From the UHGV virus genome UHGV-0159558: a DNA stretch of 39,313 bases, one strand, 5' to 3'. Below, one piece after another: positions 6,323-35,894 of this stretch. The notes under the pieces are model-generated. The model made no database searches and was not told the DNA's origin. It was given only the letters and a program-made list of their open reading frames with translations. The stretch's first letter is position 1. Each line of letters starts with the position of its first letter. A program made the translations under genes and the position numbers. This DNA is from a virus.

Positions 6323-7873
6323 ATGCAAATAGATGGAAACTCACTAAACCTGTTAAAATGGAGATTTGACGAGGCTAAGCAGTGCAGAAATGATATTTTA
6401 CCGCTATATCAAAAAGCTTACGAGAATTTCACAGTTGAGGGAATGAAACTGAATAACATAGACTCAACAGGGGTTAAATATGCGTCAAAGCTAGCTAATA
6501 AGCTATCATCATATATTATGAACTCCAATTATATTTGGGCGTACATAGAGACCCCAAGATATGAAAAAATACCAAAAGAGGATAAAGTCCAATTTGACTA
6601 TATTACCGAGGTTGTATTCGACCACATTCAAAAAGAATCTAACTTTGAGTTAGAAAAAATCAAGCTTCTCAGAGATTACTTAATAGGTACAACAGCCTTT
6701 AAAGTGAGATATACAGGAGATGTTAAAAACCCTGTTTTAATTGAGCATTGTCCAATTCTAAGCGTTTATCTAGCTAAAAATAGAGCTGGAAGAACAGGAG
6801 ATGTATTTTACAAAAGGGAAAAAGTAAAAAAGCACGAGCTTATTGACTTGTTCGGAGAAGAGGTATTATCAAATGAATTTGTCGATAAACTTACAGAACA
6901 AGACCAGTTTGAGCTAATAGAGGCAACAATTTATGACTATTCTAAGAAATTGTTTATATATGCTGTGTCTTTGGATGAGAGTTTTAATCAGATAGTAAAG
7001 TACGAGGAAACGGATTACAATCCGTGGGTAGTTGCTAGATTTGAATCTATGAGTGACAGTCCGTATGGGATGGGACCTGACACAAAAGCAGTCTTGACGC
7101 TGGAAGAACTCCAAAAGATAAAAAAAAGAATATCTAAAATTGGAGAACACCAAGCGAACCCAAGTTATACGGCGTGGACGGCAGAACCTAAATATATAGC
7201 CCAGTCAAGACTAAATACTCCAGGTAAAATATCAATCCTGGGAACAAATAAAGGTCAAACTCAAATCGAACCTTTTAACAGGGGAGAGGGTACAGATATT
7301 AAATTCTTTGAGATGGAAGAGTACAAATCAACACTTGTTGACCTGTTCTATATAAACCTTATAGAAAATATATCTAGTGTGGACCAGTTAAAAAATGTTA
7401 CAGCAACCACAACACAAGCTCTTGTCACTGAATTATCAAGACAAATAGAGCCTACATATTCACTAATGCAAAAGGAAATGCTTGAACCAATAGTTATGAA
7501 AGTGTTCTATTGCTTAACAAAAGCGAACTACTTTGACCTTACTCAGATATCAATTTTAAAAGAAGACCCTAGAATTAAAATAAGATTCTACAATGCTTTA
7601 ACCATTGCTCAAGAGCAAGACGACCAGGAAAGAGCTAACATGTACTTCCAAACAATAGCGTCAGTGCTTGGTGGAATGGTTGCGGCTAATAACGTCAATG
7701 CAGTTGAATTTATAGACGCCGCCCAAAAGAGATTTAGAGTTAAAGCAAAAGAGTTTAAATCAGGGGAAGAAACTGAAAAACAAACTGAGCAAACTATAAA
7801 TCAAATGTCACAAGAGCAAGGGGATATTGCTATGCAAGCGCAAGTCGAAAATAAGGGAGTGATAGGACAATGA
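6323..7873 (+). CDS. portal (head-to-tail connector) protein
   Basis: 516 aa, with GGGGG RBS. Sits between terS and the scaffold/capsid genes. Acidic, helical C-terminus. Loose resemblance to podovirus connector proteins. Confidence 0.55.
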   Translation: MQIDGNSLNLLKWRFDEAKQCRNDILPLYQKAYENFTVEGMKLNNIDSTGVKYASKLANKLSSYIMNSNYIWAYIETPRYEKIPKEDKVQFDYITEVVFDHIQKESNFELEKIKLLRDYLIGTTAFKVRYTGDVKNPVLIEHCPILSVYLAKNRAGRTGDVFYKREKVKKHELIDLFGEEVLSNEFVDKLTEQDQFELIEATIYDYSKKLFIYAVSLDESFNQIVKYEETDYNPWVVARFESMSDSPYGMGPDTKAVLTLEELQKIKKRISKIGEHQANPSYTAWTAEPKYIAQSRLNTPGKISILGTNKGQTQIEPFNRGEGTDIKFFEMEEYKSTLVDLFYINLIENISSVDQLKNVTATTTQALVTELSRQIEPTYSLMQKEMLEPIVMKVFYCLTKANYFDLTQISILKEDPRIKIRFYNALTIAQEQDDQERANMYFQTIASVLGGMVAANNVNAVEFIDAAQKRFRVKAKEFKSGEETEKQTEQTINQMSQEQGDIAMQAQVENKGVIGQ

Positions 7874-8855: not shown

Positions 8856-9890
8856 ATGAATACAAAAGAAAGATTACTTAAAGCCCCTCTTAACATTCAA
8901 CTTTTTGGAGCAACTAAAAACGTTGAATTAACAGAGGGAGAACAAGCCAAGTACGTAAACAATATTATGAGAGCTTTAGGGCAAACTAACAGTTTCCCTT
9001 TAAAGCAGTACATGGCAACATCAGCTTCAACAAATGCGGCTTATTCAGTTTTCTATGTAGCTGGAACTTTATCAGCTAGAGATAGAGAGGCAAACGCAGA
9101 CACTACAAACCAAAACTTCAAAGATGTAAAAGGGGTAGCAAACCAAAATCTTTTAACATCAATTAGAGTTGTACCAACTGAAATGGAAGTACCTTTATGG
9201 GTAGATGACAGAGACTTTGATAAATCACAACTTAATGAGCAATCAGCATTACAAACAATGCAAGTAGACGCTATTTATAGAGGTTGTGACGAAAGAATAT
9301 CACTACTATTAAAGGATATGTACCAAAATAAAAAGAGATCTGTTAAAAACTCAGCAGGGACAGCAGTTAATATAACAATACCTACAACAAACTTCTACGG
9401 AGATAAAGCAAAACTTTTCTCAGACCCAGATAACGTTAAGAAGTTTAGAAATATGATGAGAAAAGCTCAACACATGGCAAAGGCTAATAATCTTAAAATT
9501 GCAATAGTTTGCGGTGATGAGGGTAACGTTGAAATGGCAGATTGTGAGAAATTCTCAAATAAAGATTGGGTAAACGTTTCAGGAGAAACTACTGTTCAAT
9601 CAGGTTCAGCAATGCAAAGATTACTAGGTGGAAATGTAGAGGAGTTATGGACATTTGATGAAGTGTTCTATGAAAAAACTACTAAAGTAACTAATGGAGT
9701 TATAGCTGTTATCATAGAAAAGTCATTAGGTCAAGATAATAAAAAAGCTTCTATTAGACCAACTATTGAACACGTAGGATTTAAGAAAGCTTACTTCATG
9801 GATGTTGAGGTTGCTAATGCTACTGAACTTGTTAATCCAAATGGGGTATTTTTCTTTGAGTACGCTAAAACAGTATCTTCAATAGGATAG
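8856..9890 (+). CDS. major capsid protein
   Basis: 344 aa with N-terminal LNIQLFG (an NLQLF-like motif common at capsid N-termini). Follows the scaffold gene and is followed by a strong terminator. Confidence 0.6.
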   Translation: MNTKERLLKAPLNIQLFGATKNVELTEGEQAKYVNNIMRALGQTNSFPLKQYMATSASTNAAYSVFYVAGTLSARDREANADTTNQNFKDVKGVANQNLLTSIRVVPTEMEVPLWVDDRDFDKSQLNEQSALQTMQVDAIYRGCDERISLLLKDMYQNKKRSVKNSAGTAVNITIPTTNFYGDKAKLFSDPDNVKKFRNMMRKAQHMAKANNLKIAIVCGDEGNVEMADCEKFSNKDWVNVSGETTVQSGSAMQRLLGGNVEELWTFDEVFYEKTTKVTNGVIAVIIEKSLGQDNKKASIRPTIEHVGFKKAYFMDVEVANATELVNPNGVFFFEYAKTVSSIG

Positions 9891-9915
9891 AATACAATTT
9901 AAAATTACAACTGAA

Positions 9916-9945
9916 TAGAGGGAACAACATTCCCTCTATTTTTTT
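9916..9945 (+). terminator. intrinsic terminator after the capsid gene (TAGAGGGAA-CAACA-TTCCCTCTA + T-run)
   Basis: 9-bp perfect stem followed by T7-9. Confidence 0.75.
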
Positions 9946-9962
9946 AAAGGAGAAGGTTAAAA

Positions 9963-10190
9963 ATGAGAGCTAAAGACACATCAAAGTTAGTAAAAGAAAA
10001 GATAGTAATAATTAAATTAATGTTTATGGCAGGTTGTAAAGTGTCTGAAATAGAAGAAAAGACAGGACTTGTAAATTTAATGGATTTCACTAGAAGGCAC
10101 AATAAATATTTTAGAGATGTTAAATTCATAAAAAATAGAGAGGTGAAACAAAATGGGGCAACATCTAGAGAGAATGAAAATAGAGTTTAA
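9963..10190 (+). CDS. small protein with an HTH-like segment (75 aa)
   Basis: GGAG RBS. The segment MFMAGCKVSEIEEKTGLVNL resembles a short HTH. Confidence 0.35.
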   Translation: MRAKDTSKLVKEKIVIIKLMFMAGCKVSEIEEKTGLVNLMDFTRRHNKYFRDVKFIKNREVKQNGATSRENENRV

Positions 10191-10377
10191 AGAGTTAAAA
10201 GAAAGATATGATAAATTGGTAGATTTTTTAGGAACTCCAAAATTCAATACACTACACTTTGAACAAAAAAGCTTATTAAAGCAGCAAAAAGAAGTAATGA
10301 AAAAGTATGGTCAAATTCTAAAGAAAAGAATTAGACTTGATGAACAGATAGAAAGAGAAACTAATTATATACCGTAG
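10153..10377 (+). CDS. hypothetical helical protein (74 aa)
   Basis: GAGAGGTG RBS before ATG 10153. Confidence 0.4.
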   Translation: MGQHLERMKIEFKELKERYDKLVDFLGTPKFNTLHFEQKSLLKQQKEVMKKYGQILKKRIRLDEQIERETNYIP

Positions 10378-10386
10378 GAGTTAAAA

Positions 10387-10638
10387 ATGACTAGAGATAA
10401 AAGAGAAATTGATTTTTTAAATCTACAAGTAGGTGCAGTATTTAGATTAGGATTAAATAGACTTAAAGTTGTAGAAGAAAAAGCTGGGGGGGGAGATAAT
10501 CCTTGTGAAGAATGTTATATATTTAAAAGTGGATTTGAAGTTCCTTGTAATGAATTTGTCATTAACTCTATCATTCCAGAGTGTTGTGGCAGTTGTAGAA
10601 AAGATAAAAAAGATGTGTATTTTGAGGTGATAGATTGA
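10387..10638 (+). CDS. Cys-rich small protein (zinc-finger-like)
   Basis: CEECYIF...CNEF...CCGSC cluster. GGAG RBS. Confidence 0.4.
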   Translation: MTRDKREIDFLNLQVGAVFRLGLNRLKVVEEKAGGGDNPCEECYIFKSGFEVPCNEFVINSIIPECCGSCRKDKKDVYFEVID

Positions 10639-11180
10639 TGAACAAACCAACAAACTTTAATGATTTATTAGAGTTACAAAGAGTTTTAGATGAAAATATA
10701 GAAAAAAATAGAAGTAATGGATTTGCACCAAGAAAAAGAAACATATTAGATATTTTGTTAGCAATAGATGATGAGTTCCAAGAATGGCTAAGAGAGTTAC
10801 CATATGAGTGTAATTTCAAAACTTGGAAGCAGAAAGAATACTCAAGAGAAAAGGAACTTGAAGAACTTACAGACGTTTTATTCTTCTTTTTACAGTATTT
10901 TAATAGGTATTTCGTTGATATAAATAATTACAAAAATAATTATTGTAGAGATTTTTTTGAACGAAATTATTATGATGAAATAAACCAAGATTTAAATTCT
11001 TTAATTAGAGATTTTAAATATGATTTATGGGGTATAAGTGATTTAACAGCTTTCTATGATTATCTGAGAATAGTTCATAAAAGAGGATTTACAAAAGAAG
11101 ATTTACTTAATACTTACTGGAAGAAATGGCAAAAGAATATGACTAGAATTAATAAAGATTGGATATTGGAGGGAAAATAA
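10638..11180 (+). CDS. dimeric (all-alpha) dUTPase-like nucleotide pyrophosphohydrolase
   Basis: DLLELQRVLDENI...ILDILLAIDDEFQEWLRELP...KTWK...ELEELTDVLFFFL matches the conserved helix layout of dimeric dUTPase (dUTPase_2). GAGGTG RBS. The ATG overlaps the upstream TGA. Confidence 0.5.
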   Translation: MNKPTNFNDLLELQRVLDENIEKNRSNGFAPRKRNILDILLAIDDEFQEWLRELPYECNFKTWKQKEYSREKELEELTDVLFFFLQYFNRYFVDINNYKNNYCRDFFERNYYDEINQDLNSLIRDFKYDLWGISDLTAFYDYLRIVHKRGFTKEDLLNTYWKKWQKNMTRINKDWILEGK

Positions 11181-11282
11181 ATGACATCAGCAGGATTTGT
11201 ATTTATAGGAATAGTAGTTGGATTTTTTATAGGATTTATAGTAGGAACAATTAGAGAAAGAAAAGGTATGAATAAAAAATAG
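11181..11282 (+). CDS. 33-aa single-TM peptide
   Basis: GGAGGG RBS. Sequence is MTSAGFVFIGIVVGFFIGFIVGTIRERKGMNKK. Confidence 0.4.
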   Translation: MTSAGFVFIGIVVGFFIGFIVGTIRERKGMNKK

Positions 11283-11291
11283 AGGTGTGAT

Positions 11292-11612
11292 ATGGCAGAT
11301 TTTAACGGAATTAAGATATTAGAAATATTAGATAAAATATTTAGAAAGAAATATGATAAAAAGTCTATCCTTGAAAATGTAGGGTTAAGCTCAAGTGGTA
11401 GCAACTGCATTATAAACTATAAAGATGGAGACTTGGAGATTAGGGTTAAGGTATCACAAAAGACAGCCGTTAAGATGTATTTTGATAATGAAAAGGCTAA
11501 TGGAAACTTTAAAAACATTGATTATGCTAAGTTTGAGGAAAAATACAATGAGGGTATGGCTTTAGATGAAATAGAAGAAGAAATTAAAAAAGAACAGTTA
11601 CCACTTGAATAA
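11292..11612 (+). CDS. hypothetical protein (106 aa)
   Basis: GAGGTG RBS. Confidence 0.4.
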   Translation: MADFNGIKILEILDKIFRKKYDKKSILENVGLSSSGSNCIINYKDGDLEIRVKVSQKTAVKMYFDNEKANGNFKNIDYAKFEEKYNEGMALDEIEEEIKKEQLPLE

Positions 11613-11624
11613 AAGGAGATAAAA

Positions 11625-11879
11625 GTGCATATATACAAGAATGAAGATGGATACAGAGTGTTAGCTAAGCAATATAAGACAGGTAAAAAGAATAGTGTAA
11701 AAGATATACAGGAGCTTGTTGAAATTCCTGTATCATTTGTAAATACTACTCCACCAAGATTAAAGATAAACTATGAGACAGTTTATCCTAATGATTGGGT
11801 AGTAAAAGGGATAGGGCAAATTGAATTTGAGATTATTCCAGATAAAGAATTTAGAAAGAGATTTACAATACACAAATGA
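11625..11879 (+). CDS. hypothetical protein (84 aa), GTG start
   Basis: AAGGAG RBS before GTG 11625. Confidence 0.4.
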   Translation: MHIYKNEDGYRVLAKQYKTGKKNSVKDIQELVEIPVSFVNTTPPRLKINYETVYPNDWVVKGIGQIEFEIIPDKEFRKRFTIHK

Positions 11880-12049
11880 ATGAAGATGAAAAGATAAAAG
11901 CTCTTATATATTTTTTAAGAAAATCAAAGTCAGAGGGTAAGCACGTGAAAATGTCAAAGCTGATTGAAAAGTGTGAGAAAGAAAAAATTTCATATCCCAC
12001 ACTTTTCAGAGAGGTTTTGATACATAAATTAGAAGATGTTTTGGTGTGA
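11876..12049 (+). CDS. hypothetical protein (57 aa)
   Basis: ATGA overlap with the upstream stop. Sequence is MNEDEKIKALIYFLRKSKSEGKHVKMSKLIEKCEKEKISYPTLFREVLIHKLEDVLV. Confidence 0.35.
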   Translation: MNEDEKIKALIYFLRKSKSEGKHVKMSKLIEKCEKEKISYPTLFREVLIHKLEDVLV

Positions 12050-12105
12050 AAATGTAATTTTATTTTTGAAAAAATATTTTTATAATTTTTACACCAAAAA
12101 AACAT

Positions 12106-12182
12106 CGCGGACAAATTAGCTAAAAAATGTTAAAAAGTCCACCGTGGGCGGTACTTTTTTATGAAAATACCGCGGACAAATT
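12106..12182. repeat. direct repeat CGCGGACAAATT (12106-12117 and 12171-12182) flanking a weak hairpin plus T-run
   Basis: Seen directly. The GC-rich 12-mer occurs twice in an AT-rich spacer. Confidence 0.35.
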
Positions 12183-12266
12183 TTGAAGAAAAAATATGCG
12201 GTTTAAAAATTAACAAAAAATGAAAATTAAAAATTGAGTCCTTAATTTTAGAGGAGTTTCAAGGAA

Positions 12267-12336
12267 AAATTATTTAAAATAATTTAACTGCATATAATAC
12301 AGATTATCTACGTGGAAAATTATTCAAAATAATTTT
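12267..12336. promoter_or_regulatory. pair of near-identical palindromes (AAATTATTT-A-AAATAATTT at 12267-12285; AAAATTATT-CAA-AATAATTTT at 12316-12336) upstream of gene 12388; operator pair candidate
   Basis: Seen directly. 9-bp arms, with centres about 50 bp apart. Confidence 0.4.
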
Positions 12337-12387
12337 TTAAAGAAAAACGGTTAAAAGTGTAATTTTATTTTTTTAAAAGGAGTAGTT

Positions 12388-12603
12388 ATGAAAAAGAAAA
12401 AAAGTTTAAGAGAAATAATTGATGTAATAATTTTTAGATTGAAATATAGATTTTATTTTTTTCTTGCTAGATATAGAGTGATAAGTTTTAAGGAAGCAAA
12501 TATTAGAACTATTTCATCCTCTATTGATATGATGAAAACTATGCAGGAATTAGATGTAGTAGAAAAGCAAATAGAAATTTTAAAAGAAGTAGGTGTTTTG
12601 TAA
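12388..12603 (+). CDS. hypothetical protein (71 aa)
   Basis: AAGGAG RBS. Confidence 0.4.
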   Translation: MKKKKSLREIIDVIIFRLKYRFYFFLARYRVISFKEANIRTISSSIDMMKTMQELDVVEKQIEILKEVGVL

Positions 12604-13121
12604 TGCCTAGAATAGTAAGAGATAAGAGAATTGCTAGAATGATAATGTGCCTTTCTGTTATTCATGACAACGTTGCCCACCATATAAAAGTGTGGGGTGA
12701 TGAGATAAAACTCAATGATGGATGGTTAGCCCCATATAAAAAGGGGCTTATGACTAAGATGTATAACTCCATAGAAAAAATGCTGATGAACTATGATGAA
12801 AATCATGTTGTTCTTTCTAATGGAGCAAGGGAAAATTTACTGGATAAAATCTATGAGTTTCATGTGATACTTGCTAATAGAAAAGCTAAAGAGGGAGTTA
12901 AAAAGACATTTGATTTTGATATAGAGAAAAAATCTATGCCAAAGGGAATGTTAGATACATTCATAGCCTTTTCTTTAACTACAGAATATACAGAGGAGTA
13001 TTTTTCTAAGAGCCTTGAAATAGAAAATCTAACAGAGGATTTTAAAAAGTTTAAAAAATATCTAAAGCAATATCAAAAATTCTTTGAAGATGAAATGATA
13101 ATAACAGTAAGGGAGGGGTAA
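12603..13121 (+). CDS. hypothetical protein (172 aa)
   Basis: TAATG overlap with the upstream gene. Confidence 0.4.
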   Translation: MPRIVRDKRIARMIMCLSVIHDNVAHHIKVWGDEIKLNDGWLAPYKKGLMTKMYNSIEKMLMNYDENHVVLSNGARENLLDKIYEFHVILANRKAKEGVKKTFDFDIEKKSMPKGMLDTFIAFSLTTEYTEEYFSKSLEIENLTEDFKKFKKYLKQYQKFFEDEMIITVREG

Positions 13122-13123
13122 AA

Positions 13124-13528
13124 GTGAAAATAAAAGAAGTGGTAAGAAAAATACTAACATATTTAGGGTTTGTAAAAAAAGAACCTATACAACCAAAAGT
13201 ATTAACGGATGATGAAATAATTAGAAAGTATGGTTCTATTTATGAAAAGTGTGACGTAAGACTTAAAATGCAAATTGACGAGTTAAGAATTATAAATGAA
13301 AGAAAAAAACTACAGCCCGAAAGATGCTATTACTGTAAAAATTTTCAAAGATTTACTGGAGATAATAAAGTATCTGGAGAAGCTAATTTCTGTAATTTTC
13401 TTGAAGATGTAATTTTAGTTCCACGTAAATTTGTTTGTAATAAATTTGAAGCTAGTCAAGAATATTTAAAACAAGTTGAAATAGCAAAATTAAAAAGAAG
13501 TGTTGATTTTAGAGAGGTAGAAGAATGA
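13124..13528 (+). CDS. Cys4 zinc-ribbon protein, paralog 1 (longer, with N-terminal extension)
   Basis: GGGAGGGG RBS with GTG start. The C-terminal half CYYCKNF...FCNF...RKFVCNKFEAS...KLKRSVDFREVEE matches the downstream paralogs. Confidence 0.45.
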   Translation: MKIKEVVRKILTYLGFVKKEPIQPKVLTDDEIIRKYGSIYEKCDVRLKMQIDELRIINERKKLQPERCYYCKNFQRFTGDNKVSGEANFCNFLEDVILVPRKFVCNKFEASQEYLKQVEIAKLKRSVDFREVEE

Positions 13529-13701
13529 CAGTAGGAGAACTAATAAAAGAACTAGAGAACTATGACGAGGATATGGAAGTTGTAGCACGTGATAAAGCAG
13601 ATGAAATAAATTTAGCATTGCTTGATATAGTAGAAGTTAAGGAAAATTATTATCTAAAGAAAACATTAGAACTTGTTGTAGACATTGAGGAGAAAATATG
13701 A
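13525..13701 (+). CDS. hypothetical acidic protein (58 aa)
   Basis: ATGA overlaps on both ends. Sequence is MTVGELIKELENYDEDMEVVARDKADEINLALLDIVEVKENYYLKKTLELVVDIEEKI. Confidence 0.4.
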   Translation: MTVGELIKELENYDEDMEVVARDKADEINLALLDIVEVKENYYLKKTLELVVDIEEKI

Positions 13702-13925
13702 AAGATTTAGGAATTAGAGAGTGTTGTTACAATTGCAAAATATTAGAAACTGTAGCTACACATGGACCAACTAGAACTGTTTATTGCAAAAATATTCAAG
13801 ATATTATTGATTTTCCAGAAAGATTTATATGTGATAAATTTGAGCCTAGTGGAAAATTTTTAAATGATTATACTTTATCTAAATTAAAAAAAGAAGTCAA
13901 TTTTAGAGAGGTGAAAGATGATTAA
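13698..13925 (+). CDS. Cys4 zinc-ribbon protein, paralog 2
   Basis: CCYNCKILETVATHGPTRTVYCKN...ERFICDKFEPS...KLKKEVNFREVKDD. Confidence 0.45.
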   Translation: MKDLGIRECCYNCKILETVATHGPTRTVYCKNIQDIIDFPERFICDKFEPSGKFLNDYTLSKLKKEVNFREVKDD

Positions 13926-14172
13926 AAAACTCATAAACTGGTGGAGATATAAAAAAGCTCTTAATAAAGAATATTCTAAAATTAGTTTCAATTGTGAAAA
14001 TTGCAGTTATTTTTATTTTTGTAACAAAAATTGTAGCTTGCTTAAAAAAGATATTAAAAATCCAAGTTACTTTATTTGTAACAATTTTGAAGTTAGTCGA
14101 TATAAATTACATGACGCTCAAAGAATAGCACTTGAAAAAACATCTAATTTCAGAGAGGTGGAAGATGATTAA
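13918..14172 (+). CDS. Cys4 zinc-ribbon protein, paralog 3
   Basis: CENCSYFYFCNKNCS...SYFICNNFEVS...TSNFREVEDD. Confidence 0.45.
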   Translation: MIKKLINWWRYKKALNKEYSKISFNCENCSYFYFCNKNCSLLKKDIKNPSYFICNNFEVSRYKLHDAQRIALEKTSNFREVEDD

Positions 14173-14440
14173 AAAATATAAGAAAAAACCTATCGTAATT
14201 GAAGCTATTCAATTCATTGATACTGCTGAAAGAATTGAAGAAATTTTTAAGTTTATGAATAATGAAACTATGAGAGTTGATTATTCAGTAGATGATCACC
14301 CAGCTATTTTAATAGAAACTTTAGAAGGAACAATGAGAGCAGAAGAGAATGATTATATCATAAAAGGAGTAAATAGAGAGTTTTATCCATGCAAACCTGA
14401 AATATTTTTAAAAACTTATGAAGAGGTGGAAGATGAATAA
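14165..14440 (+). CDS. hypothetical protein (91 aa; the ORF track extends it to 14132)
   Basis: GAGAGGTGGAAG-ATG junction identical in form to the preceding paralog junctions. C-terminus is EEVEDE. Confidence 0.4.
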   Translation: MIKKYKKKPIVIEAIQFIDTAERIEEIFKFMNNETMRVDYSVDDHPAILIETLEGTMRAEENDYIIKGVNREFYPCKPEIFLKTYEEVEDE

Positions 14441-14939
14441 AGACAAAATAATAAAAATGGCTTTCCTCGAATTAGGATTTCCCTATGCTGATGAGGACTT
14501 ACAAGAGGACGTCAACTTTGAAACGGCGTCCTTTTATTTTAATGATATAGTTCTAAAGATACAAAACGATACTAGATTTAACTTCAATTTAGCTAAAGAA
14601 AGATTAAAGTTACTAGATAGACAAAGATATACAGATAGATACGAGTACGCTAAACCTACTGGATTTTTAAAGAATCTTACTCCAGGAATAGCAGAGTTTG
14701 GAGATGTCCTTTTAAGTGATGAAGCAGAGGTTGAGTGTACATATAAAAAGAAACTCGATCTTGAAGACATTCCAGACACATACGAAAGACTTACAGCTTT
14801 ATGGCTTGCTACTGCTATTTGTAGTTCGGTTGGTAAAGCAAAAGCAATAACTAGACTTGCTTCTCTTATGCAACTTGAAGAGGAGAAACTAACATTTGAT
14901 AATGGACTAATGGGATTTGATTTGGAGGATTTGAACTAA
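14433..14939 (+). CDS. virion structural protein candidate (168 aa)
   Basis: GAGGTGG RBS before ATG 14433. It is the first gene of the large-protein structural block. Confidence 0.35.
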   Translation: MNKDKIIKMAFLELGFPYADEDLQEDVNFETASFYFNDIVLKIQNDTRFNFNLAKERLKLLDRQRYTDRYEYAKPTGFLKNLTPGIAEFGDVLLSDEAEVECTYKKKLDLEDIPDTYERLTALWLATAICSSVGKAKAITRLASLMQLEEEKLTFDNGLMGFDLEDLN

Positions 14940-16750
14940 TGTTTGAGGGTAAATTAAGATTTAGTCTTGGGGAAATTTCCCCAGGACTAAGGTATAGAGT
15001 AGAAACTGAAATACCAGCTAAAGGACTTGCATATCTCAAAAATGGTCTTACATCTGATAGTGCAGGGTTAATTAATTTTCCAAGCTTTGAAAAAATAAAT
15101 ACTATATCAGTTGCTAGCGAACTTAGAACTATTGAGGGTTTTAAACTCTTTAAATACAAAATCAACAAGAAAGATACCTCACTTAGTGGGTATCTATTCT
15201 TATATACAAACAAAAAAGTATTGGTATTAAGAATGGATAATTTTCAAGTAGTTAAAGAAATTCCTACAACTTATACTCCAGAAGAAATAAAAAAACTTAG
15301 TATTACACAATTTGAGAACTCTGTTATAAGTTGTGTAGCTAATAAAGAGCCTGTAATGGTAAGAGTAGATGAAGCTACACCAGAGTTTACAGTAGTTGAA
15401 TATTGGAAAAGTATAACAAATCCACCTGTAAAAGCAGTAGAAAGTGAGTATCAATATACAGATACTGACAAGCTTGTGTTTACTTGGTATCAAGATGGTT
15501 CTAAGATTATCTTTGAAAGCACTCTTTCTAATCCTGTATATAAGCCTAGTTTCTTAGAAAACTTTGAAAAAGGTACTATTTCATATATGGGTGGAGAGTT
15601 CAGAATATCTAAGATTGAAAATACTAGTGGAAAGCAGAAAATAACTACATCTCAAGTAACAGCCCCTGGAGGGAATATAGAAATTCCAGATAAAAGCGTA
15701 GAACTTGAAAAGAAAAAAATCAATATCCTGGATATAGTTTTTTCAGAAAATCTATTTAGAAAAGGTTATCCAGCAGTTGTTACAGAGTATAAAGGAAGAG
15801 TTATATTTGGTAACGTTGCAGGGAATCCAAGTTGTGTCGTATCATCTCGTGTCTTTGACTCTCTTAACTTTAGACAGTCTACAGAGGATAACGACGGATT
15901 TACCACTTTCCTTGCAGGTAATGAGGTTAATACAGTAGTTGACTTTATATCGTATAAATCTCTAATAGCAGTTACTGACAAGGGGTTTTTCTCAACTCAA
16001 CTTAACACAGGTCTTACTCCTAAGACATCAGAGTTCTATGACCAAAAACTATCACGTCCTAAAGGATTAGGGTATTGGACAGAATCTGACGACGCTATCT
16101 ATTATGTAGACACATCTAATAGAATATTTCAAATACAAGATGTAGGGGCAGATAGTGCTTATAAGACTATGGAAGTATCAACATATAGCAATCACTTATT
16201 TGACAATGTAGAAGATATCTATTTCTTTAAGCATAAGAAAAATAACCTTATAGGAGTAGATTGTGGAGAAGAGGCAAGAGCATTAAGTTATAAATTTGAA
16301 GAGGATATTATATGTTGGACAAGATGTAATAAGCTACAGGGGATTAACGAGTATGTCAATGTTGATGATAAATTATATATCTTCAATGCTACTGGAAGTG
16401 AAATTAACATATACACTTATTCAGATACCAATGTAGAGCCTTTAGAGTTTAAATTAGCTGAAACTTCTTTAAGTCAAAAGGTGCGTACAGATGTTCCAGA
16501 GTTCTTTAAAAGAACTACCATAGGACAAGTTAAGATGGTCGTTATAGGCGATTATGATTTAGAAGTCAATGGTAAAAGAAAAGAACATGCCTTAAAACTA
16601 GAGGACGTTCCATCAGATAAAGTTCATTTTGTAACTATACCTAATACAGGTAAAAAGGAACTTTATATAAAACAGATGAATAACAACCCTATTGAAATAG
16701 TTGGTATATTTGCTGAAATTAGAGATTTTGAACAACAGGAGGACGAGTAA
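14939..16750 (+). CDS. large virion structural protein (603 aa; tail or tubular protein candidate)
   Basis: GGAGGA RBS. Ser/Thr/Asn-rich, beta-rich composition. Position is after the capsid-side genes. Confidence 0.4.
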   Translation: MFEGKLRFSLGEISPGLRYRVETEIPAKGLAYLKNGLTSDSAGLINFPSFEKINTISVASELRTIEGFKLFKYKINKKDTSLSGYLFLYTNKKVLVLRMDNFQVVKEIPTTYTPEEIKKLSITQFENSVISCVANKEPVMVRVDEATPEFTVVEYWKSITNPPVKAVESEYQYTDTDKLVFTWYQDGSKIIFESTLSNPVYKPSFLENFEKGTISYMGGEFRISKIENTSGKQKITTSQVTAPGGNIEIPDKSVELEKKKINILDIVFSENLFRKGYPAVVTEYKGRVIFGNVAGNPSCVVSSRVFDSLNFRQSTEDNDGFTTFLAGNEVNTVVDFISYKSLIAVTDKGFFSTQLNTGLTPKTSEFYDQKLSRPKGLGYWTESDDAIYYVDTSNRIFQIQDVGADSAYKTMEVSTYSNHLFDNVEDIYFFKHKKNNLIGVDCGEEARALSYKFEEDIICWTRCNKLQGINEYVNVDDKLYIFNATGSEINIYTYSDTNVEPLEFKLAETSLSQKVRTDVPEFFKRTTIGQVKMVVIGDYDLEVNGKRKEHALKLEDVPSDKVHFVTIPNTGKKELYIKQMNNNPIEIVGIFAEIRDFEQQEDE

Positions 16751-16751
16751 T

Positions 16752-17351
16752 ATGAGTTTTATGTTAGCTGCAATGCTACTCTCACAAGGAGTAAATATTA
16801 TAGGTAGTCTTAATAGTGCCAAGCAAGCAAAACTTGAGGGAGGAGTTCAAAAAAAGGCTGCTGAATTAAATGCTGAAACCCAAAGAACAACAGTAATAGA
16901 ACAGTATACAGATATATTTTCTAAGCAAACATCGGAGCTAGCCTCACAGTCTGCTATATTTGCTAATGCTGGAATAGATAAAGCAGGGTCACTCTTTAGA
17001 CAAGGTATGAGAGCACATGAAAGAAACTTCCTAGATAGTAAAGCTGATATGGAAAGTGATATGAGAAATATAGATCTCAACTTGAAGTCTCAAAAATATA
17101 ATATAGATTCTCAAGTTAGAGCTAAGAAAAACGAGGCTTACTCTAATGTGGTTAGTGGACTTATGAATATGGCTACTACATATATGGGGTATAGTATAAA
17201 TAAAGGAACAGACCTTAACAGTATTAGTGGTGGTAGAAGTGCTGCACAAGCTGGAAGTTCTTCAACTGTATTAGGCGGAAAAGCTATTAACACTTCATTG
17301 AATTTAGATATTTTTGGTAATAAACCTAAATATCCAGGATTAGGGTGGTAG
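16752..17351 (+). CDS. virion protein (199 aa; internal protein candidate)
   Basis: GGAGGA RBS before ATG 16752 (the ORF track starts at 16701). Helical and Gln/Ser-rich. Confidence 0.4.
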   Translation: MSFMLAAMLLSQGVNIIGSLNSAKQAKLEGGVQKKAAELNAETQRTTVIEQYTDIFSKQTSELASQSAIFANAGIDKAGSLFRQGMRAHERNFLDSKADMESDMRNIDLNLKSQKYNIDSQVRAKKNEAYSNVVSGLMNMATTYMGYSINKGTDLNSISGGRSAAQAGSSSTVLGGKAINTSLNLDIFGNKPKYPGLGW

Positions 17352-24506: not shown

Positions 24507-26084
24507 ATGGAGGTGGTAAAGTTGGGGTTTGGATTATCTACTAGACAGGAACGTAGAAAAGTAACTGTATCCTATGAAAAGGTTATAAAGAAAATGCACC
24601 TAGGACAACAAGAAATGGTTCGTGAAGTCCTAAAAGGTGAGAAAAAATATTTCGCTCTTATGGCTCACCGTAGATATGGGAAAGACTTCTTAGCGTTAAT
24701 AGTCCTTATTCTATGTGCTGTTAAATATCCTGGAAACTACTATATCTTTGCACCATATTTTAGACAGGCTAAAGAGATTGTAGTTGACGGAAAAACGCTT
24801 GACGGAGTACCTATGATTGAAAATCTATTCCCTAGAGTGCTGCTAAAAAATCCGAAATCTCAATTCATAGTAAATAGGTCTGACTGGTCTATCACTCTTT
24901 ACAACAATTCAAAGATATTCATTCGTGGAGCAGACAACCCTAATAGTAACGTAGGGGTTGGAGCTAGAGGAATAATCTACACCGAGGCTGCTCTAATGAA
25001 ACCAGGATTCTACCAATATATGAAACCAGCTATCGACGCAGTAATTAATAAAACTGGTTTCGGAGTAGTAATCTTTATTTCTACTCCAAGGGGTAAAGAT
25101 AACTGGTTCACAAGACTATTTGTAGACTACTTTAAAAAGTTTGATAAACACCCAGAAATTAAAAAACTTTGGTATGTGGATATTCAAAGAGCAAGTGAAT
25201 CTAAAGCTTGGAATGGTAACCCTGTAATGAATATTGTAGAAAGAGAGAAACAAAAGGCTGAAATGTTACCAGAGATTTATGCACAAGAATATGAATGTGC
25301 ATTAAACACAAGTTGTATGGGAGCTTATTATACGGACCAAATAGCACAAGCTATAAAGGATAAAAGAATTGGTAGGTTTGGAAAATATGAAGAGACTTAC
25401 GATGAGTATGCAAATACTAAGCTTGAATATATGGGATACTATTTCAAACATGCCCCTTTATATGTATCTTGGGATATAGGAAAACGTGACCACACAGTTA
25501 TATGGTTTTTTCAAATAAACCCAAGTAATGGCAATATAAGGTTTATCCATCACTACAGAAATAAAGGCGTTGGAGCAGACCATTTTTGTGAGTATATTAA
25601 AAACTATGTAAAAGGTAAATACTTTGGTAGTGAACCTATAATGATATTACCTCACGATGGAGATGTAGAAGAATGGACATCAACCTCAAAAAGAAGTGAC
25701 TACATTAGAGAGTTCTTCTTTAGCGATGTAAGAGTACTATCAAAAACAGACTTAGCAGGAGCTAATATGGCTACCCTTATGGCACAGATAAACAAGATTA
25801 GATTCTTGTTTACAAGAGTAGAGATTGATTCCGAGGAGTGCAACATAGGGCTAGATAAACTTAGAAGCTATATTAAAAAGTATGATAAGAACAAACAGGA
25901 ATATGTAGATATTCCAGACCATGACGCTAATGATAAAGCCTCGGATGACGCAGATTCATTCAGAACAGCTATGATTTACTATGATTTGTATTTAAAAATT
26001 CAACCAGGATTTGAAAAATTTGAAAATACTGTATTTGATACAGGAGGAGCTATAACTTATGAAGATGAAGATTATTTCTTTTAA
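24507..26084 (+). CDS. terL: terminase large subunit
   Basis: Walker-A-like MAHRRYGKDF. An IIYTEAALM segment. RNaseH-like nuclease Asp motifs WDIGKRDH, ILPHDGDVEEW and DHDANDKASDD. ISTPRGKDNWF segment. Possible TTG start at 24522 after GGAGGTGG. Confidence 0.7.
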   Translation: MEVVKLGFGLSTRQERRKVTVSYEKVIKKMHLGQQEMVREVLKGEKKYFALMAHRRYGKDFLALIVLILCAVKYPGNYYIFAPYFRQAKEIVVDGKTLDGVPMIENLFPRVLLKNPKSQFIVNRSDWSITLYNNSKIFIRGADNPNSNVGVGARGIIYTEAALMKPGFYQYMKPAIDAVINKTGFGVVIFISTPRGKDNWFTRLFVDYFKKFDKHPEIKKLWYVDIQRASESKAWNGNPVMNIVEREKQKAEMLPEIYAQEYECALNTSCMGAYYTDQIAQAIKDKRIGRFGKYEETYDEYANTKLEYMGYYFKHAPLYVSWDIGKRDHTVIWFFQINPSNGNIRFIHHYRNKGVGADHFCEYIKNYVKGKYFGSEPIMILPHDGDVEEWTSTSKRSDYIREFFFSDVRVLSKTDLAGANMATLMAQINKIRFLFTRVEIDSEECNIGLDKLRSYIKKYDKNKQEYVDIPDHDANDKASDDADSFRTAMIYYDLYLKIQPGFEKFENTVFDTGGAITYEDEDYFF

Positions 26085-26102: not shown

Positions 26103-27494
26103 ATGTTAGAGTTTAAAAAAGAATATTTTCAAACAGAAACAAATAGACACCTATACCCTACAACTCTTGACCTCTCGAAAGCAGAAGTCTATGGGTGCAA
26201 GGATAGAGAAGCGTATATGTATAAGATACCTAATGATAGATATGCAAGCAATGCTGGTAATATAGACTTTTCTCTATATCCTAACGGGGTATGGAGTGAC
26301 TATACAGGGATAAAAATAGTTGAAAGATTACCGTTTTTTCAACCTAGTATCAATTTTAATAAGCTAGGAGATATAACACCTACTAACCTTAATAAACTTA
26401 AAGATGAAATTAAAAAACATATAGTTGATATTGAAACTGCTATTATGGAAAATTATATATTTATAGACACTAAAAATGCTGGACAAAACAATTTACCATA
26501 TTTACCAGATGATTGTGTATGGTTTAGAAATGGAATTACTGGAAATATAGAAGCACTGCCAGTGGGAGAACTATATGATAAATATAAAAGTATGATAGAT
26601 AAAGTCTATAACGATGTGTATAAATTATTATTAAAAGATAAAGAAGCTATGTCACAGGAACTTAAAGAACTGTTAGCCGAAGCTATGAAGCAATTAGAAA
26701 ATTTTAAAGTAGAAGCACAAGAACAGTTTAGAGAAGAATTAAAAAAAATAGAAAATAAAACCAAAATAGAGATAGAATCTTATGTCATAGATGATATAAA
26801 ACCTGGCATAAATTCTTTTGCAGAAGAAAAAAAAGAAGAACTCCAACAATTTATAGATGAAAACAAAGCTAATCTTAAAGGGAACAAGGGAGATAAAGGG
26901 GACAAAGGAGACCCAGGACCTAAAGGAGATTCTATAAAAGGAGATAAAGGAGATATAGGACCTCGTGGGGAAAAAGGGGATATAGGACCTGTTGGTCCTC
27001 GTGGTGAACCAGGACCTACTGGTCCTCGTGGAGAATTTGTAAAAGGAGATAAGGGTGAAAAGGGGGATACAGGAGATACAGGACCTCGTGGGGAAAAGGG
27101 AGACCCAGGACCTACTGGTCCTCGTGGGGATTCTATAAAAGGTGAAAAGGGGGATAAAGGTAATACAGGTCCTGCTGGAGAAAAAGGTGACACAGGAGCT
27201 AGTATAAGTAAAATTACAAGCACTGGAAGTACAGAAGCTGGAAACAATTATTCAGTGCAAACAGATAACGGAGTAATAATAGGAGCTTTCACAGCACCAA
27301 GAGGTCCTAAAGGGATTGATGGGGCTAAAGGTGAAAAGGGAGACAAAGGAGATACAGGAGCAATAGTTACAGCTCAAGGTCAATTCGCTTTTCATGTAGA
27401 TAATAAAGGACATCTTATTTTAACTCACGAAGAGGATACAGCACCTAATTTCTCATTAAGCGAAGACGGGCATTTAATCTACACAATAAATTAA
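26103..27494 (+). CDS. collagen-like tail fibre protein (Gly-X-Y repeats)
   Basis: Long G-X-Y runs (GDKGDKGDPGPKGD, GPRGEKGDIGPVGPRGEPGPTGPRGE). GC-rich codons produce a stop-free shadow ORF on the opposite strand. Confidence 0.65.
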   Translation: MLEFKKEYFQTETNRHLYPTTLDLSKAEVYGCKDREAYMYKIPNDRYASNAGNIDFSLYPNGVWSDYTGIKIVERLPFFQPSINFNKLGDITPTNLNKLKDEIKKHIVDIETAIMENYIFIDTKNAGQNNLPYLPDDCVWFRNGITGNIEALPVGELYDKYKSMIDKVYNDVYKLLLKDKEAMSQELKELLAEAMKQLENFKVEAQEQFREELKKIENKTKIEIESYVIDDIKPGINSFAEEKKEELQQFIDENKANLKGNKGDKGDKGDPGPKGDSIKGDKGDIGPRGEKGDIGPVGPRGEPGPTGPRGEFVKGDKGEKGDTGDTGPRGEKGDPGPTGPRGDSIKGEKGDKGNTGPAGEKGDTGASISKITSTGSTEAGNNYSVQTDNGVIIGAFTAPRGPKGIDGAKGEKGDKGDTGAIVTAQGQFAFHVDNKGHLILTHEEDTAPNFSLSEDGHLIYTIN

Positions 27495-27506
27495 AGGAGG
27501 TAACAA

Positions 27507-29843
27507 ATGGCAACAATAGATTTAGGACTTGTAAGAGGTAAAGATGGTCTTAATGTAAAAGAATTGAGATTAAAAGAATCAACAGACACTCAAAACGTAT
27601 ATGAGGTTGTTTTAAGTGATGATAGTGTAGCAGGGCAAGTTACAGTACCAGCAGGGAAACAAGGACCTCAAGGGATTCAAGGGGTTAAAGGTGAAACAGG
27701 AGCTCGTGGAGCTAATGGAGCTGATGGAGCTCAAGGGGTTGGAATTTCTAAAATTGCATTTAAAAATGAAAATCTTGATGGTAGCTTTATATACGCAGTT
27801 ACTCTTACAAATAATCAAACATATGAAATAACGTGTCCAATAGGTCCTAAAGGGGATAGAGGAGATACAGGTAGTGCTGGGGCTAAAGGTGAAGCAGGAG
27901 CTCAAGGGGTTGGAATTTCTAGGATAGCATACAAAAATACAAATCAGGATGGTAGTTATGTATATACAGTTTCTCTTACTAACGGAACATCACACGAAAT
28001 AACATGTCCAATAGGTCCTAAAGGTAGCACTGGTGGTGCTGGTCCACAAGGTCCTAAAGGGGACGCTGGAGTTCAGGGGGTTCAAGGGGTTGGAATTACT
28101 AATGTCAGATACAAACAAACGTCAAGTAATGGAAGCTATATCTATACAATAGTTTTATCAAATGGAAACACATATGATATTACATGTCCAATAGGTCCTA
28201 AAGGGGATAAAGGAGACGATGGAGATACTAGTAGTATAACTTTAACATGGAGTGCTATACAAAATAAACCAACAACATTCCCATCAACTTGGAGTGAAAT
28301 AACAGGAAAACCTAGTTCGTTCCCTCCATCAGCTCATAATCAAGATTGGGGCACAATAACTGGTATACCTGGCACATTTACACCATCGCCTCATAAACAT
28401 TCTAAAATAGATATAACAGATTTTCCAGAAATTCCAAAACCTATATCTGCACTTCCAATAGGAACTATAATTCCTTATGTAGGAGGTTCGATACCACTTG
28501 GATTTTTGCTATGTGATGGTAGAGAGATAAAACAATTTGATTATCCATTATTATATAATTTACTTCCAACAGGTTGGAGTATAAACGAAGCTGGATTTAG
28601 ACGTATGGCTAAAATGGAAATTCCAGCAATGCAAAGTGCAAGTCAAAATGGATTCACTGTAACAGAAAGTAGCAAATGGCAAGATTCGGAAGCAGGTTGG
28701 AAAATATTTAATAGAAAATATTTTGATTATTTTTCAACAGCCGATGGTAATGCTAGTGGTTATGTAGAAATAAGTTATCCTGAAAAAAGAGCAGTTAGCA
28801 AAATAATTTTTAAAGCTAGAGATAGAGAAGCTAATTCAAAATGGAAAAGAGTTGCTTTTTATGGTGATGATAAAAAACTTTGGGAAGAAAGTTTTGTTTC
28901 AACTTCTCCTCAAACTAATAAAGTTTTTGAAAGAGAACTACCTTTTAATGAGACTATTGAAGAATACAATAGGTTTAAAATAGAAATAGAAGGAGAAAAT
29001 ACAGAGGTTATTTCGCTTTCAGAACTAGAAATATATACTGTTAATCTAAAAGACATTCCTATATCATCAAATCTACAAACTAAAAAGTATCTTCCAGATT
29101 TAAGAGGTAAGTTTTTAAAAGGAAATACAAGTGATAGAAAATTACTAAGTTTCGAATATCAAGGCGTAGGCAAGCACAAACATAAAGAGATTCTTAATGG
29201 TTGGGAAAATATTGATTCTTTAAATGCTGAGTTTATAGACTTGAAACCTTTAGTTACTGGGTTGACGTCTGAGAAAGATGAAAACGTTGGTTATGGCGAT
29301 AATGCAACTGTGTTAAGAACAGGAGATGAACTGGCAACAGGTGATGAAAACGTTCCTAACAATATTTCTGTTAACTACATAATTAAAGCTTTAAATGTAG
29401 ATGATGAAGTACCTCCAAGTTCTGTTTTAACAGAGATTAATAATAAAATAGAAAACAATAAAACAGATATTGAAGAATTAAGAGAAAACATAAATGTTTT
29501 AGACGGCAATACAAACTATGAAACAGTAGAGTTATTCTCTTCGCAAGTTGCTATACCAGATAAAATCACTTTAAATGAAAGTATAAAGAATTTTAGACAA
29601 ATTGAAATTTGGACTTGTTTTAATGAAAGAAATTACAAAGTGTCGCATTTATTAAATACAGATACTATAACTTATAGTGATTCCGAAACAAGTGCAACTC
29701 AAAACTCTATGAATAGATATTTTTTTGAAACCTTTGGAAATAGATATACTTTTGCTATTTTCAAAACAAATGGTACAGATGTATTAGTAGCTAATTATGA
29801 AACTGCTTGTATAACTAAAATAATAGGAATTGGAAGAAAATAA
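27507..29843 (+). CDS. tail fibre or receptor-binding protein with collagen-like segments and a triplicated 57-aa module
   Basis: G-X-Y runs interleaved with three copies of GVGIS[KR]IA[FY]KN...G[ST][FY][IV]Y[AT]V[TS]LTN...[EH]ITCPIGPKG. Long beta-rich C-terminal domain. Confidence 0.6.
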   Translation: MATIDLGLVRGKDGLNVKELRLKESTDTQNVYEVVLSDDSVAGQVTVPAGKQGPQGIQGVKGETGARGANGADGAQGVGISKIAFKNENLDGSFIYAVTLTNNQTYEITCPIGPKGDRGDTGSAGAKGEAGAQGVGISRIAYKNTNQDGSYVYTVSLTNGTSHEITCPIGPKGSTGGAGPQGPKGDAGVQGVQGVGITNVRYKQTSSNGSYIYTIVLSNGNTYDITCPIGPKGDKGDDGDTSSITLTWSAIQNKPTTFPSTWSEITGKPSSFPPSAHNQDWGTITGIPGTFTPSPHKHSKIDITDFPEIPKPISALPIGTIIPYVGGSIPLGFLLCDGREIKQFDYPLLYNLLPTGWSINEAGFRRMAKMEIPAMQSASQNGFTVTESSKWQDSEAGWKIFNRKYFDYFSTADGNASGYVEISYPEKRAVSKIIFKARDREANSKWKRVAFYGDDKKLWEESFVSTSPQTNKVFERELPFNETIEEYNRFKIEIEGENTEVISLSELEIYTVNLKDIPISSNLQTKKYLPDLRGKFLKGNTSDRKLLSFEYQGVGKHKHKEILNGWENIDSLNAEFIDLKPLVTGLTSEKDENVGYGDNATVLRTGDELATGDENVPNNISVNYIIKALNVDDEVPPSSVLTEINNKIENNKTDIEELRENINVLDGNTNYETVELFSSQVAIPDKITLNESIKNFRQIEIWTCFNERNYKVSHLLNTDTITYSDSETSATQNSMNRYFFETFGNRYTFAIFKTNGTDVLVANYETACITKIIGIGRK
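27735..28205 (+). repeat. three tandem ~171-bp coding repeats inside the tail-fibre gene
   Basis: Repeat starts at nt 27735, 27906 and 28086, derived from the protein repeat positions. Confidence 0.55.
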
Positions 29844-29845
29844 AA

Positions 29846-30289
29846 ATGGAGGAAATTATGAAAACATCAGATAAAGGTATTGAGTTCATTATCAAAGAAG
29901 AGGGAGAAGTCCTACACGCTTATAGATGTCAAGCTGGAGTGTGGACAATAGGAGTAGGGCACACTGGAGGAGTTACACCAGATATGAAAATAACCAAAGA
30001 ACAGTCAAGACAACTTTTAAAAGCTGACTTATGTAGATTTGAAAAGGCAGTTAATGAAACTATTAAACACGAACTTCTTCAGCATCAATTTGATGCACTC
30101 GTAAGCTTTAGTTTTAATGTAGGAACTCAAGCTTTTATAAACTCAACGCTAGCTAAAAAAATAAATGCTAACGCACCATATAATGAAATTAGAGAACAGT
30201 TCCTAAGATGGAATAAAGCTGGAGGAAGAGTTCTTGCAGGACTTACAAGTAGAAGAAAAAGAGAAGCGAAACTATATTATGGAGAGTGA
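29846..30289 (+). CDS. phage lysozyme (GH24 muramidase endolysin)
   Basis: GIEFIIKEEGEVLHAYRCQAGVWTIGVGHT...QFDALVSFSFNVG...FLRWNKAGGRVLAGLTSRRKREAKL closely matches the T4/lambda-type lysozyme signature (E-x8-D/C-x5-T catalytic region, FLRWNKAGG). True start is probably ATG 29858 after GGAGGA. Confidence 0.85.
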   Translation: MEEIMKTSDKGIEFIIKEEGEVLHAYRCQAGVWTIGVGHTGGVTPDMKITKEQSRQLLKADLCRFEKAVNETIKHELLQHQFDALVSFSFNVGTQAFINSTLAKKINANAPYNEIREQFLRWNKAGGRVLAGLTSRRKREAKLYYGE

Positions 30290-35331: not shown

Positions 35332-35363
35332 TCTAACCCCTTTCTTTAAAATTGTAATCATAG

Positions 35364-35389
35364 TGTGAAAAAAATAATAAATTTTCACG
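35364..35389. promoter_or_regulatory. inverted repeat GTGAAAA-N12-TTTTCAC in the rep promoter region (autoregulation operator candidate)
   Basis: Seen directly. Related TTTTCACAC(TT) partial iterons are at 35447 and 35561. Confidence 0.35.
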
Positions 35390-35728: not shown

Positions 35729-35894
35729 GTCGCTAAAGTCCTTGATTTTAGGGAAGTCTTGAGCCTCTTAAACTATATAAACTTATAAACTTATAAATAG
35801 GTAAAATTTTTTCACTTTATTTTTTAAATAATGTGACAAAATGGTACCCTATCACTTGAACTTCCCATCAAAATTTAATTTTTACATATTAAGT

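Follow-up and report, generated by a model that had tools for sequence, protein, structure and literature searches.

How can a packed run of small phage genes gain, lose and swap members without being broken as an operon? This question is raised by the virus genome UHGV-0159558, a stretch of 39,313 nucleotides (nt) that was analysed as a whole and is hereafter called the window. Between its capsid and tail genes lie three genes for small proteins with four conserved cysteines (the Cys4 family), each of which ends on a closely similar sequence that can be read both as its own last codons and as the ribosome-binding site (RBS) and start of the following gene. The overall reading favoured here, with a probability of about 0.72, is that this locus displays ordinary gene-boundary mosaicism among translationally coupled genes, three of which belong to a new orphan family with cassettes bracketed by short repeats. 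The observation is real and beyond chance, and both the dual coding and the exchange at gene boundaries are supported by comparison of the window with its relatives.

Three paralogues joined by dual-coding junctions

Based on reading of the sequence and the list of open reading frames (ORFs) over 12800-14800, the segment 12603-14939 is an uninterrupted, one-strand series of seven small genes (Table 1). The products of 134, 75 and 84 amino acids (aa) could be aligned with one another, and pairwise BLASTP returned E values of 3e-14, 4e-9 and 8e-9 at 35-43% identity. By these comparisons they are true paralogues, as the first-pass annotation had claimed from the letters alone. The same annotation described the three genes as consecutive, which is incorrect, since an unrelated 58-aa gene stands between the first and the second. 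The 134-aa paralogue is built in the order of a 65-aa N-terminal extension, the Cys4 core, a C-terminal helix and the terminal DFREVEE-stop.

The junctions between these genes share a recognizable pattern. A search with TTYAGAGAGGTRGAAGATGA, allowing up to 3 mismatches, gave four matches at 13508, 13902, 14149 and 14417, against 0 expected from 100 shuffles, and a repeat finder independently recovered the junction repeats (D2-D4) as well as a 70-nt repeat of the core (D1). Four junctions had indeed been announced beforehand; the first was placed exactly, the other three (given as 13905, 14148 and 14415) were off by 1-3 nt, and the fourth closes the unrelated 91-aa gene instead of a paralogue. 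J2 and J3 are 83% identical over 42 nt, and J3 and J4 have a 15-nt exact match in common. At the left edge of the series, the 84-aa gene of the relatives L012 and L039 begins at J0 with GTG.

Each junction comprises the last codons of the upstream gene, a GAGGT[GA] Shine-Dalgarno (SD) sequence, a spacer of 5-6 nt and an ATG overlapping the upstream stop, the overlap being 4 nt (ATGA) at J1 and 8 nt (ATGAwTAA) at J2-J4. The downstream starts agree with the N-termini of homologues and with PHROG profile alignments, which begin at residues 1-6. The double service of the junction, as C-terminal codons and as the RBS and start of the next gene, had been suggested at the outset and could be read directly in the sequence, with codon choice in agreement. 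An overlapping start and stop with an SD inside the upstream ORF is the arrangement by which translationally coupled genes are recognized, and it was found at these junctions, where coupling of translation is probable.

How much of the shared tail belongs to the protein and how much to the RBS can be separated to a large extent. The GAGGTG core is the ordinary RBS of this genome, because GAGGT[GA] precedes 14 of the 53 window genes. What is specific to these junctions is the pair of flanking F-R codons together with the GATGAwTAA overlap, the 8-nt overlap occurring in this genome at J2-J4 only. Hence the similarity of the junctions, once set against other RBS contexts, is explained by a common SD for its GAGGTG part and not for the rest. 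Unrelated genes were found to end on the same signal, namely ...YFEVID-stop at 10638 and ...YIEVDK-stop at 19454, and the E-V pair of the tail is therefore imposed by the RBS. Over the whole genome, 31% of Glu residues are encoded by GAG and 11% of Val residues by GTG, and yet GAG is used at 4/4 junctions and GTG at 3/4, a rare choice that agrees with E-V being dictated by the SD. In addition, the five NFREV codons are 80-100% identical at the nucleotide level across the paralogues, most third positions included, whereas the cores reach only 45-60%.

Two relatives pull these layers apart. The protein P0007 (locus L020) ends with DFRELNK-stop, followed by a terminator-like hairpin and no abutting gene, so that FRE is present and GAGGTG is gone. 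Contrarily, the 79-aa type of L026 ends with NTKEVK-stop, read from AAGAGGTGAAATAATGA, in which the SD is retained and FRE is lost. The two layers of the tail are thus separable. On this evidence, F-R-E is a family motif conserved at the protein level, and what comes behind it, V, E/K, D, D/E and then the stop codon, is the initiation signal of the next gene as read in the upstream frame. As a separate observation, the 75-aa gene of L027 (5534-5761), a relative with the same gene order as the window, ends with NFREMKDD, with Met in place of the Val of the E-V pair; the window codon is GTG, and Met would imply ATG and with it a weaker GAGGTG SD, as deduced from the protein.

Whole-gene exchange at the junctions

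The phage of the window is represented by numerous public contigs of about 39 kb, one of which (L040) is 100% identical to it over 9801-13200, and its 91-aa gene is present in roughly 80 public contigs. Between the same two anchors, namely the point where the 172-aa gene ends and the point where the 168-aa tail gene starts, five architectures were found, with flanks of 94-100% identity. Written as product lengths in aa, type A is 134-58-75-84-91 (1318 nt; the window and about a dozen contigs), type B is 134-58-75 (803 nt; the five contigs L007-L011), type C is 84-91 (524 nt; L039, with L012 partial), type D is 83-57-76 (650 nt; L013) and type F is 79-58-75-91 (915 nt; L026). An apparent sixth architecture in L028 was rejected, since a run of Ns at a scaffold gap accounts for it. 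The relatives have 1, 2 or 3 Cys4 copies, which confirms the copy-number variation that the first-pass annotation had proposed to look for in related genomes. Slot 1 is occupied by three paralogue types (134, 83/84 and 79 aa) in otherwise similar genomes. The 84-aa gene is missing from the B- and F-type relatives; the 91-aa gene is missing from types B and D and present in the F-type relatives that have no 84-aa gene.

In the architectures compared, every boundary of presence and absence falls inside the junction motif. Between types F and A, the 75-aa gene differs by 1 base and the crossover lies within the 9-nt AGAGAGGTG common to J2 and J3, leaving a clean 247-nt indel that is exactly the 84-aa cassette as delimited by its two flanking repeats of 42 nt (83% identity). 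The boundary of type B against type A falls within AAGATGA, and that of type C against type A at the SD/GTG start of slot 1. In L013, the 83-aa paralogue is linked to the same 58-aa gene through an identical junction (J1), and a mosaic boundary stands exactly at J4, with 73% identity to its left and 97% to its right. Both marks of a gene-boundary mosaic, the presence or absence of whole genes and breakpoints at junctions with short shared sequence, were accordingly found.

The origin of the copies was addressed by comparison with a second phage lineage. Positions 13916-14220 of the window are 84% identical at the nucleotide level to positions 9999-10303 of L001, a 49-kb phage the rest of which is unrelated. 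In this 49-kb lineage the 84-aa homologue is single-copy and lies between dUTPase and PspA/TerD-like genes. The match identifies the 84-aa copy as one that was acquired horizontally and not duplicated in place. Local tandem duplication followed by divergence, with the relatives of fewer copies as simple deletion derivatives, would suit genes that are adjacent, on one strand and bracketed by repeats, and type F fits a deletion from type A. It is nevertheless extremely unlikely in view of the low core identity among the copies, the 84% identity of the 84-aa type to a lone gene after dUTPase in an unrelated lineage, the three paralogue types of slot 1 in otherwise similar genomes, and a foreign 3' patch in the B-type 75-aa gene. 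Considering that the copies are diverged and that the 84-aa copy is foreign, the array was assembled by acquisition and exchange. The original wording, cassette duplication or exchange, is thus borne out for exchange by five architectures with boundaries in the motif, and abandoned for duplication in situ.

A mechanism can be proposed for such exchange. The small accessory genes between the capsid and tail genes follow one another head to tail and are probably coupled in translation, and the 3' end of a family gene carries the SD (GAGGTG), spacer and ATG of whichever gene comes next. The native 5' RBS-start of the 84-aa type (AGAGGTAGAAGATGTTTAAAAA in L020) resembles the 3' junction of the family, and each cassette is therefore bracketed by near-identical sequence of 17-42 nt. 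Recombination or slippage between these short repeats may add, remove or swap whole cassettes, and the upstream stop codon and the downstream RBS would be left undisturbed. Exchange at the bracketing repeats would in turn give rise to relatives with one, two or three copies and with differing paralogues in one slot. The event itself might consist in annealing by Sak, in replication slippage, or in illegitimate joints that are afterwards selected. The window encodes a single-strand annealing protein (SSAP) of the Sak family, which is a candidate catalyst of short-homology exchange and may have this role here. Rad52-like SSAPs of phages are able to recombine sequences that are short and diverged (PMC3945230, PMC5499656), and a minimal pairing segment of 23-27 bp has been reported for Redbeta (PMC3945230).

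Several findings weigh against the favoured reading. Exact identity at the junctions is just 7-15 nt, which is under the Redbeta segment, so that SSAP-driven homologous exchange at the motif is no more than a candidate route. The GAGGT[GA] signal is widespread in the genome, as described above. The difference between types A and B is not a simple deletion, since 12 substitutions are found in the final ~50 nt of the 75-aa gene, compared with 1 in the preceding 574 nt, and this diverged patch may have spread by ordinary homologous recombination in the flanking genes. Other indels in the block break at SD/start sites of unrelated genes, for instance that of the 83-aa gene at 10387-10638, and the pattern may therefore reflect selection for intact genes instead of a property of the motif. 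On the protein side, metal binding and fold are without support, the two AlphaFold2 (AF2) runs giving predicted local distance difference test (pLDDT) values of 52.6 and 61.7, which are of low confidence, and the fold searches being uninformative.

These findings could also be accommodated by random illegitimate joints that are selected at gene boundaries (Hendrix-type), in which case the similarity of the junctions would be a by-product of RBS and start constraints plus FRE conservation, and the motif would have no recombinogenic role. The common SD, the unrelated ends FEVID-stop and IEVDK-stop, the break of the unrelated 83-aa gene in an SD and the short exact matches are all in line with this account. 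However, the 42-nt similarity of J2 and J3 at 83%, with a 15-nt exact run reaching the first codons of the next gene (MIKK in both), goes beyond what an RBS needs; moreover, the F-type indel is exactly the unit between the J2 and J3 repeats, and the 8-nt GATGAwTAA overlap is confined to J2-J4 in this genome. The by-product account is consequently regarded as rather unlikely.

The best-supported picture is ordinary mosaicism acting on coupled cassettes, the similar ends of which come from the C-terminal motif of the family combined with the standard SD and start of the genome. A more far-reaching proposal would have the motif kept, beyond the demands of RBS and protein, as a portable stop-RBS-start adaptor resembling the family's own 5' RBS, by which the Cys4 genes become self-contained "plug-in" cassettes with scarless insertion and loss in a coupled operon, allowing fast turnover of metal-binding, host-targeting (possibly anti-defence) proteins between unrelated phages; this is judged distinctly improbable.

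Table 1. Genes, junctions and other features of the window (positions in nt; stop, stop codon).
Feature	Position	Strand	Description and basis
Left anchor, 172-aa gene	12603-13121	+	phrog_24613; upstream of the cassette slot in all relatives
J0	13108-13129	+	AGGGAGGGGTAAAAGTG; SD and GTG start of slot 1; left edge of type C; comparison of L012 and L039
Cys4 paralogue 1, 134 aa	13124-13528	+	ends VDFREVEE-stop; ORF list, BLASTP
J1	13508-13530	+	TTTAGAGAGGTAGAAGAATGA; encodes F-R-E-V-E-E-stop, with SD and ATG (13525) of the 58-aa gene
Acidic 58-aa gene	13525-13701	+	phrog_5861 (E 2.6e-8), non-paralogue; profile match
Cys4 paralogue 2, 75 aa	13698-13925	+	ends VNFREVKDD-stop; ORF list, BLASTP
J2	13888-13929	+	42-nt repeat with AGAGAGGTGAAAGATGATTAA; stop of the 75-aa gene, SD and ATG (13918) of the 84-aa gene
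Cys4 paralogue 3, 84 aa	13918-14172	+	ends SNFREVEDD-stop; ORF list, BLASTP
J3	14135-14176	+	AGAGAGGTGGAAGATGATTAA; stop of the 84-aa gene, SD and ATG (14165) of the 91-aa gene
91-aa gene	14165-14440	+	phrog_419 (E 1.5e-33), non-paralogue, ends EEVEDE-stop; profile match
J4	14417-14440	+	GAAGAGGTGGAAGATGAATAA; stop of the 91-aa gene, SD and ATG (14433) of the tail gene
Right anchor, 168-aa tail gene	14433-14939	+	phrog_394; conserved flank of the variable segment
T7-type portal	6323-7873	+	
gp14-like protein	16701-17351	+	
Terminase	24507-26084	+	
Collagen-repeat fibres	26103-29843	+	
Lysozyme	29846-30289	+	
ParA	33187-33921	-	domain scan
Rep3 initiator	34414-35388	-	domain scan
Sak-family SSAP	36906-37526	-	PF06378 (E 3e-31)

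The Cys4 family and its possible role

The invariant residues, C-x2-C-x(10-19)-C-x14-C plus one Ile, are conserved in all five types and in fusions with a TPR domain. A protein profile search of 5.8 billion proteins returned 3 and then 11 clusters, and the family amounts to about 12 clusters in this collection. An exhaustive scan of 1.84 billion representatives with a hidden Markov model gave 8 matches, 1 of them spurious; the match to P0008, a 648-aa repeat protein, was judged spurious as the Cys pattern is missing. All members come from metagenome assemblies and fall into 134-aa, 75/76-aa, 81-84-aa and 79-aa types and two TPR-fused proteins (P0009 and P0013), so that the sources of the family are two phage lineages and a TPR-fused version. 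P0009 and P0013 contain the Cys4 core only, fused to the TPR domain, with neither the C-terminal helix nor FREV. The positions concerned are 404-856 and 2193-2483 of L016 (also L017-L019); the contigs are AT-rich and have an adjoining archaeal-type RpoK/Rpb6 gene, and the Cys4 core is therefore not confined to phages.

Searches against the 50,697 GenBank phages by megablast (10 kb) and tblastn (75-aa protein) returned no match. The first-pass annotation had proposed to look for the family in other phages; it occurs in the unrelated 49-kb lineage and gave no match among the GenBank phages. Comparison of the family with Pfam, PHROGs, PADLOC and NCBIfam yielded noise, or TPR matches from the fused members, and sequence profile searches of the PDB likewise gave TPR matches or noise only. 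Two scans of GTDB genomes, one for the family profile and one for the TPR-Cys4 fusion, gave no match, and thus no host or prophage. The family is a new and very rare orphan family of Cys4 proteins.

Another cysteine-rich gene in the window was considered as a member and rejected, at an hhalign probability of 1.2%. This is the 83-aa gene at 10387-10638; its product displays C-x2-C ... C ... CC-x2-C and ends with YFEVID-stop, and the gene overlaps the TTG start of the dUTPase_2 gene.

A classical zinc ribbon is characterized by two CxxC/CPxC knuckles, each on a beta-hairpin; the family has a single invariant CxxC, its other two Cys are 14 residues apart, and the zinc-ribbon label of the first-pass annotation is not supported. 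The four-Cys core is presumably metal-binding, and the C-terminal part is predicted to be an amphipathic helix followed by the [ND]-F-R-E motif. In the low-confidence AF2 models, the Cys residues seem to be surrounded by beta-hairpins, and the C-terminus seems to form a helix. With Foldseek, no match of these models in PDB or BFVD had an E value under 2, a result that is uninformative because the pLDDT is low. Among defence and anti-defence profiles, the phage members had no meaningful PADLOC hit, and the best PHROG match was at E 0.017; the anti-defence role that the first-pass annotation had put forward as possible gains no support from this. Our best guess is that these proteins are small binding modules, stabilised by a metal, that target a macromolecule of the host or the phage.

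The nature of the metal was weighed separately. If the four Cys held an iron-sulfur cluster in the manner of SPASM/twitch domains and not zinc, the proteins would be redox or radical-SAM accessory modules. Sub-threshold matches of 3 members to TIGR04085 SPASM (best E 0.0023), a weak match to the radical-SAM family phrog_1802 (E 0.028) and the C-x2-C-x6-C-x3-C of the 84-aa copy point in this direction. Nevertheless, the SPASM score of the window 84-aa copy is 16.6 bits against a cut-off of 27, and the extra cysteine (C35) is restricted to some members of the 84-aa subfamily (the window copy, P0002 and P0003), being missing in P0006, P0007, P0010, P0011, P0012 and every other type. The invariant C-x2-C...C-x14-C does not match the SPASM motif (CX2CX5CX3C plus further Cys) either, nor was a partner gene of the radical-SAM kind detected among the window genes. 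An iron-sulfur role is therefore very unlikely.

Genome context and comparison with known systems

The window is a roughly 39.3-kb podovirus-like element that, judging from its predicted genes, looks like a phage-plasmid (Table 1). It combines the plasmid-type functions Rep3 and ParA and a Sak gene with T7-type genes for the portal and internal virion proteins, and no integrase was detected among the ORFs scanned. Its genes are arranged in strand blocks, 4070-32480 on the plus strand and 32526-37526 on the minus strand. As clues to the host, the portal has its best match in a Fusobacterium phage at 23% identity, and Rep3 resembles proteins of Firmicutes and various other groups at 28%. Neither an Rfam element nor a tRNA turned up when the window was scanned for them. 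The Cys4 genes belong to a small accessory gene block (9963-14432) between the capsid and tail genes, and a 338-nt non-coding gap (12049-12388) with a terminator-like hairpin (12137-12149) lies just upstream of the packed run of Cys4 and tail genes. The same phage is carried at nearly twice genome length by L025/L034 (ENA ERZ27282659 k141_7269, 73,813 bp), which may represent a larger replicon, a concatemer or contigs joined in assembly, and might give a clue to the host.

The whole accessory block appears as a plasticity zone in L007, L008, L026, L028, L029, L038 and L039. The 83-aa gene at 10387-10638 is missing in L026 and L038, with the breakpoint in an SD. A 79-aa gene with a hydrophobic N-terminus and a putative signal peptide is inserted after dUTPase in L007, L028, L029 and L038. 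L008, L009 and L039 have a DUF6275 gene, while in L023 and L027 the 172-aa gene is split into pieces of 57 and 113 aa. At 11181-11282, an ORF for a hydrophobic peptide of 33 aa (MTSAGFVFIGIVVGFFIGFIVGTIRERKGMNKK) is 92-94% identical at the nucleotide level to positions 16120-16193 of L001 from the 49-kb lineage, and it also stands at an indel boundary in relatives. The 74-aa protein at 10153-10377 matches PF21825 (crAss001_48 related; "Sequestin" in contig annotations) with E 1.5e-19, and its gene overlaps the preceding 75-aa ORF by 38 nt.

The value of the locus is that of a natural series documenting gene-boundary mosaicism, with five architectures on one backbone and one indel resolved to a 9-nt crossover within a dual-coding stop/RBS/start junction. 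The series shows the gain and loss of coupled accessory genes without breaking the operon, and the function of the orphan Cys4 family could merit testing. The phenomena are known ones, well resolved in a new and rare family, and current understanding is not overturned.

Compared with small Cys4 zinc domains such as zinc ribbons and treble clefs, the family proteins are likewise small, with four invariant Cys, one CxxC and beta-hairpins in low-confidence AF2 models. They differ in having no second CxxC knuckle and no zinc-finger match in Pfam, NCBIfam or PDB. Integron-like or site-specific arrays call for a dedicated tyrosine or serine recombinase and structured recombination sites. A scan of 38 window ORFs, most of the larger ones included but several others, some long structural genes among them, left out, revealed no domain of an integrase or recombinase; the junction here is plain SD/start sequence.

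In translational coupling, stop and start codons overlap (ATGA and similar) and the SD lies inside the upstream ORF. The present junctions resemble this closely in their 4-nt ATGA or 8-nt ATGAwTAA overlap, the GAGGTG at 5-6 nt before the ATG and the SD-biased codons. There is no mechanistic difference; the one particular feature is a junction that recurs at four boundaries in succession and moves together with its cassette.

The modular theory of phage genomes, in which modules are exchanged at gene boundaries, goes back to Susskind and Botstein, and short conserved "boundary" or "linker" sequences have been reported in lambdoid phages. The locus agrees with phage mosaicism in that whole-gene cassettes are present, absent or swapped, that the boundaries lie at junctions with short common sequence, and that a Sak-family SSAP is encoded here. 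Relaxed recombination by Rad52-like SSAPs was described by De Paepe et al. in 2014 (PMC3945230), and the pairing segments of Redbeta are longer than the exact homology of 7-15 nt seen here. Unlike the usual mosaic boundary, the one described here is dual-coding, combining C-terminal codons with the next SD and start, and it is carried by one paralogous family, so that the array can expand and contract.

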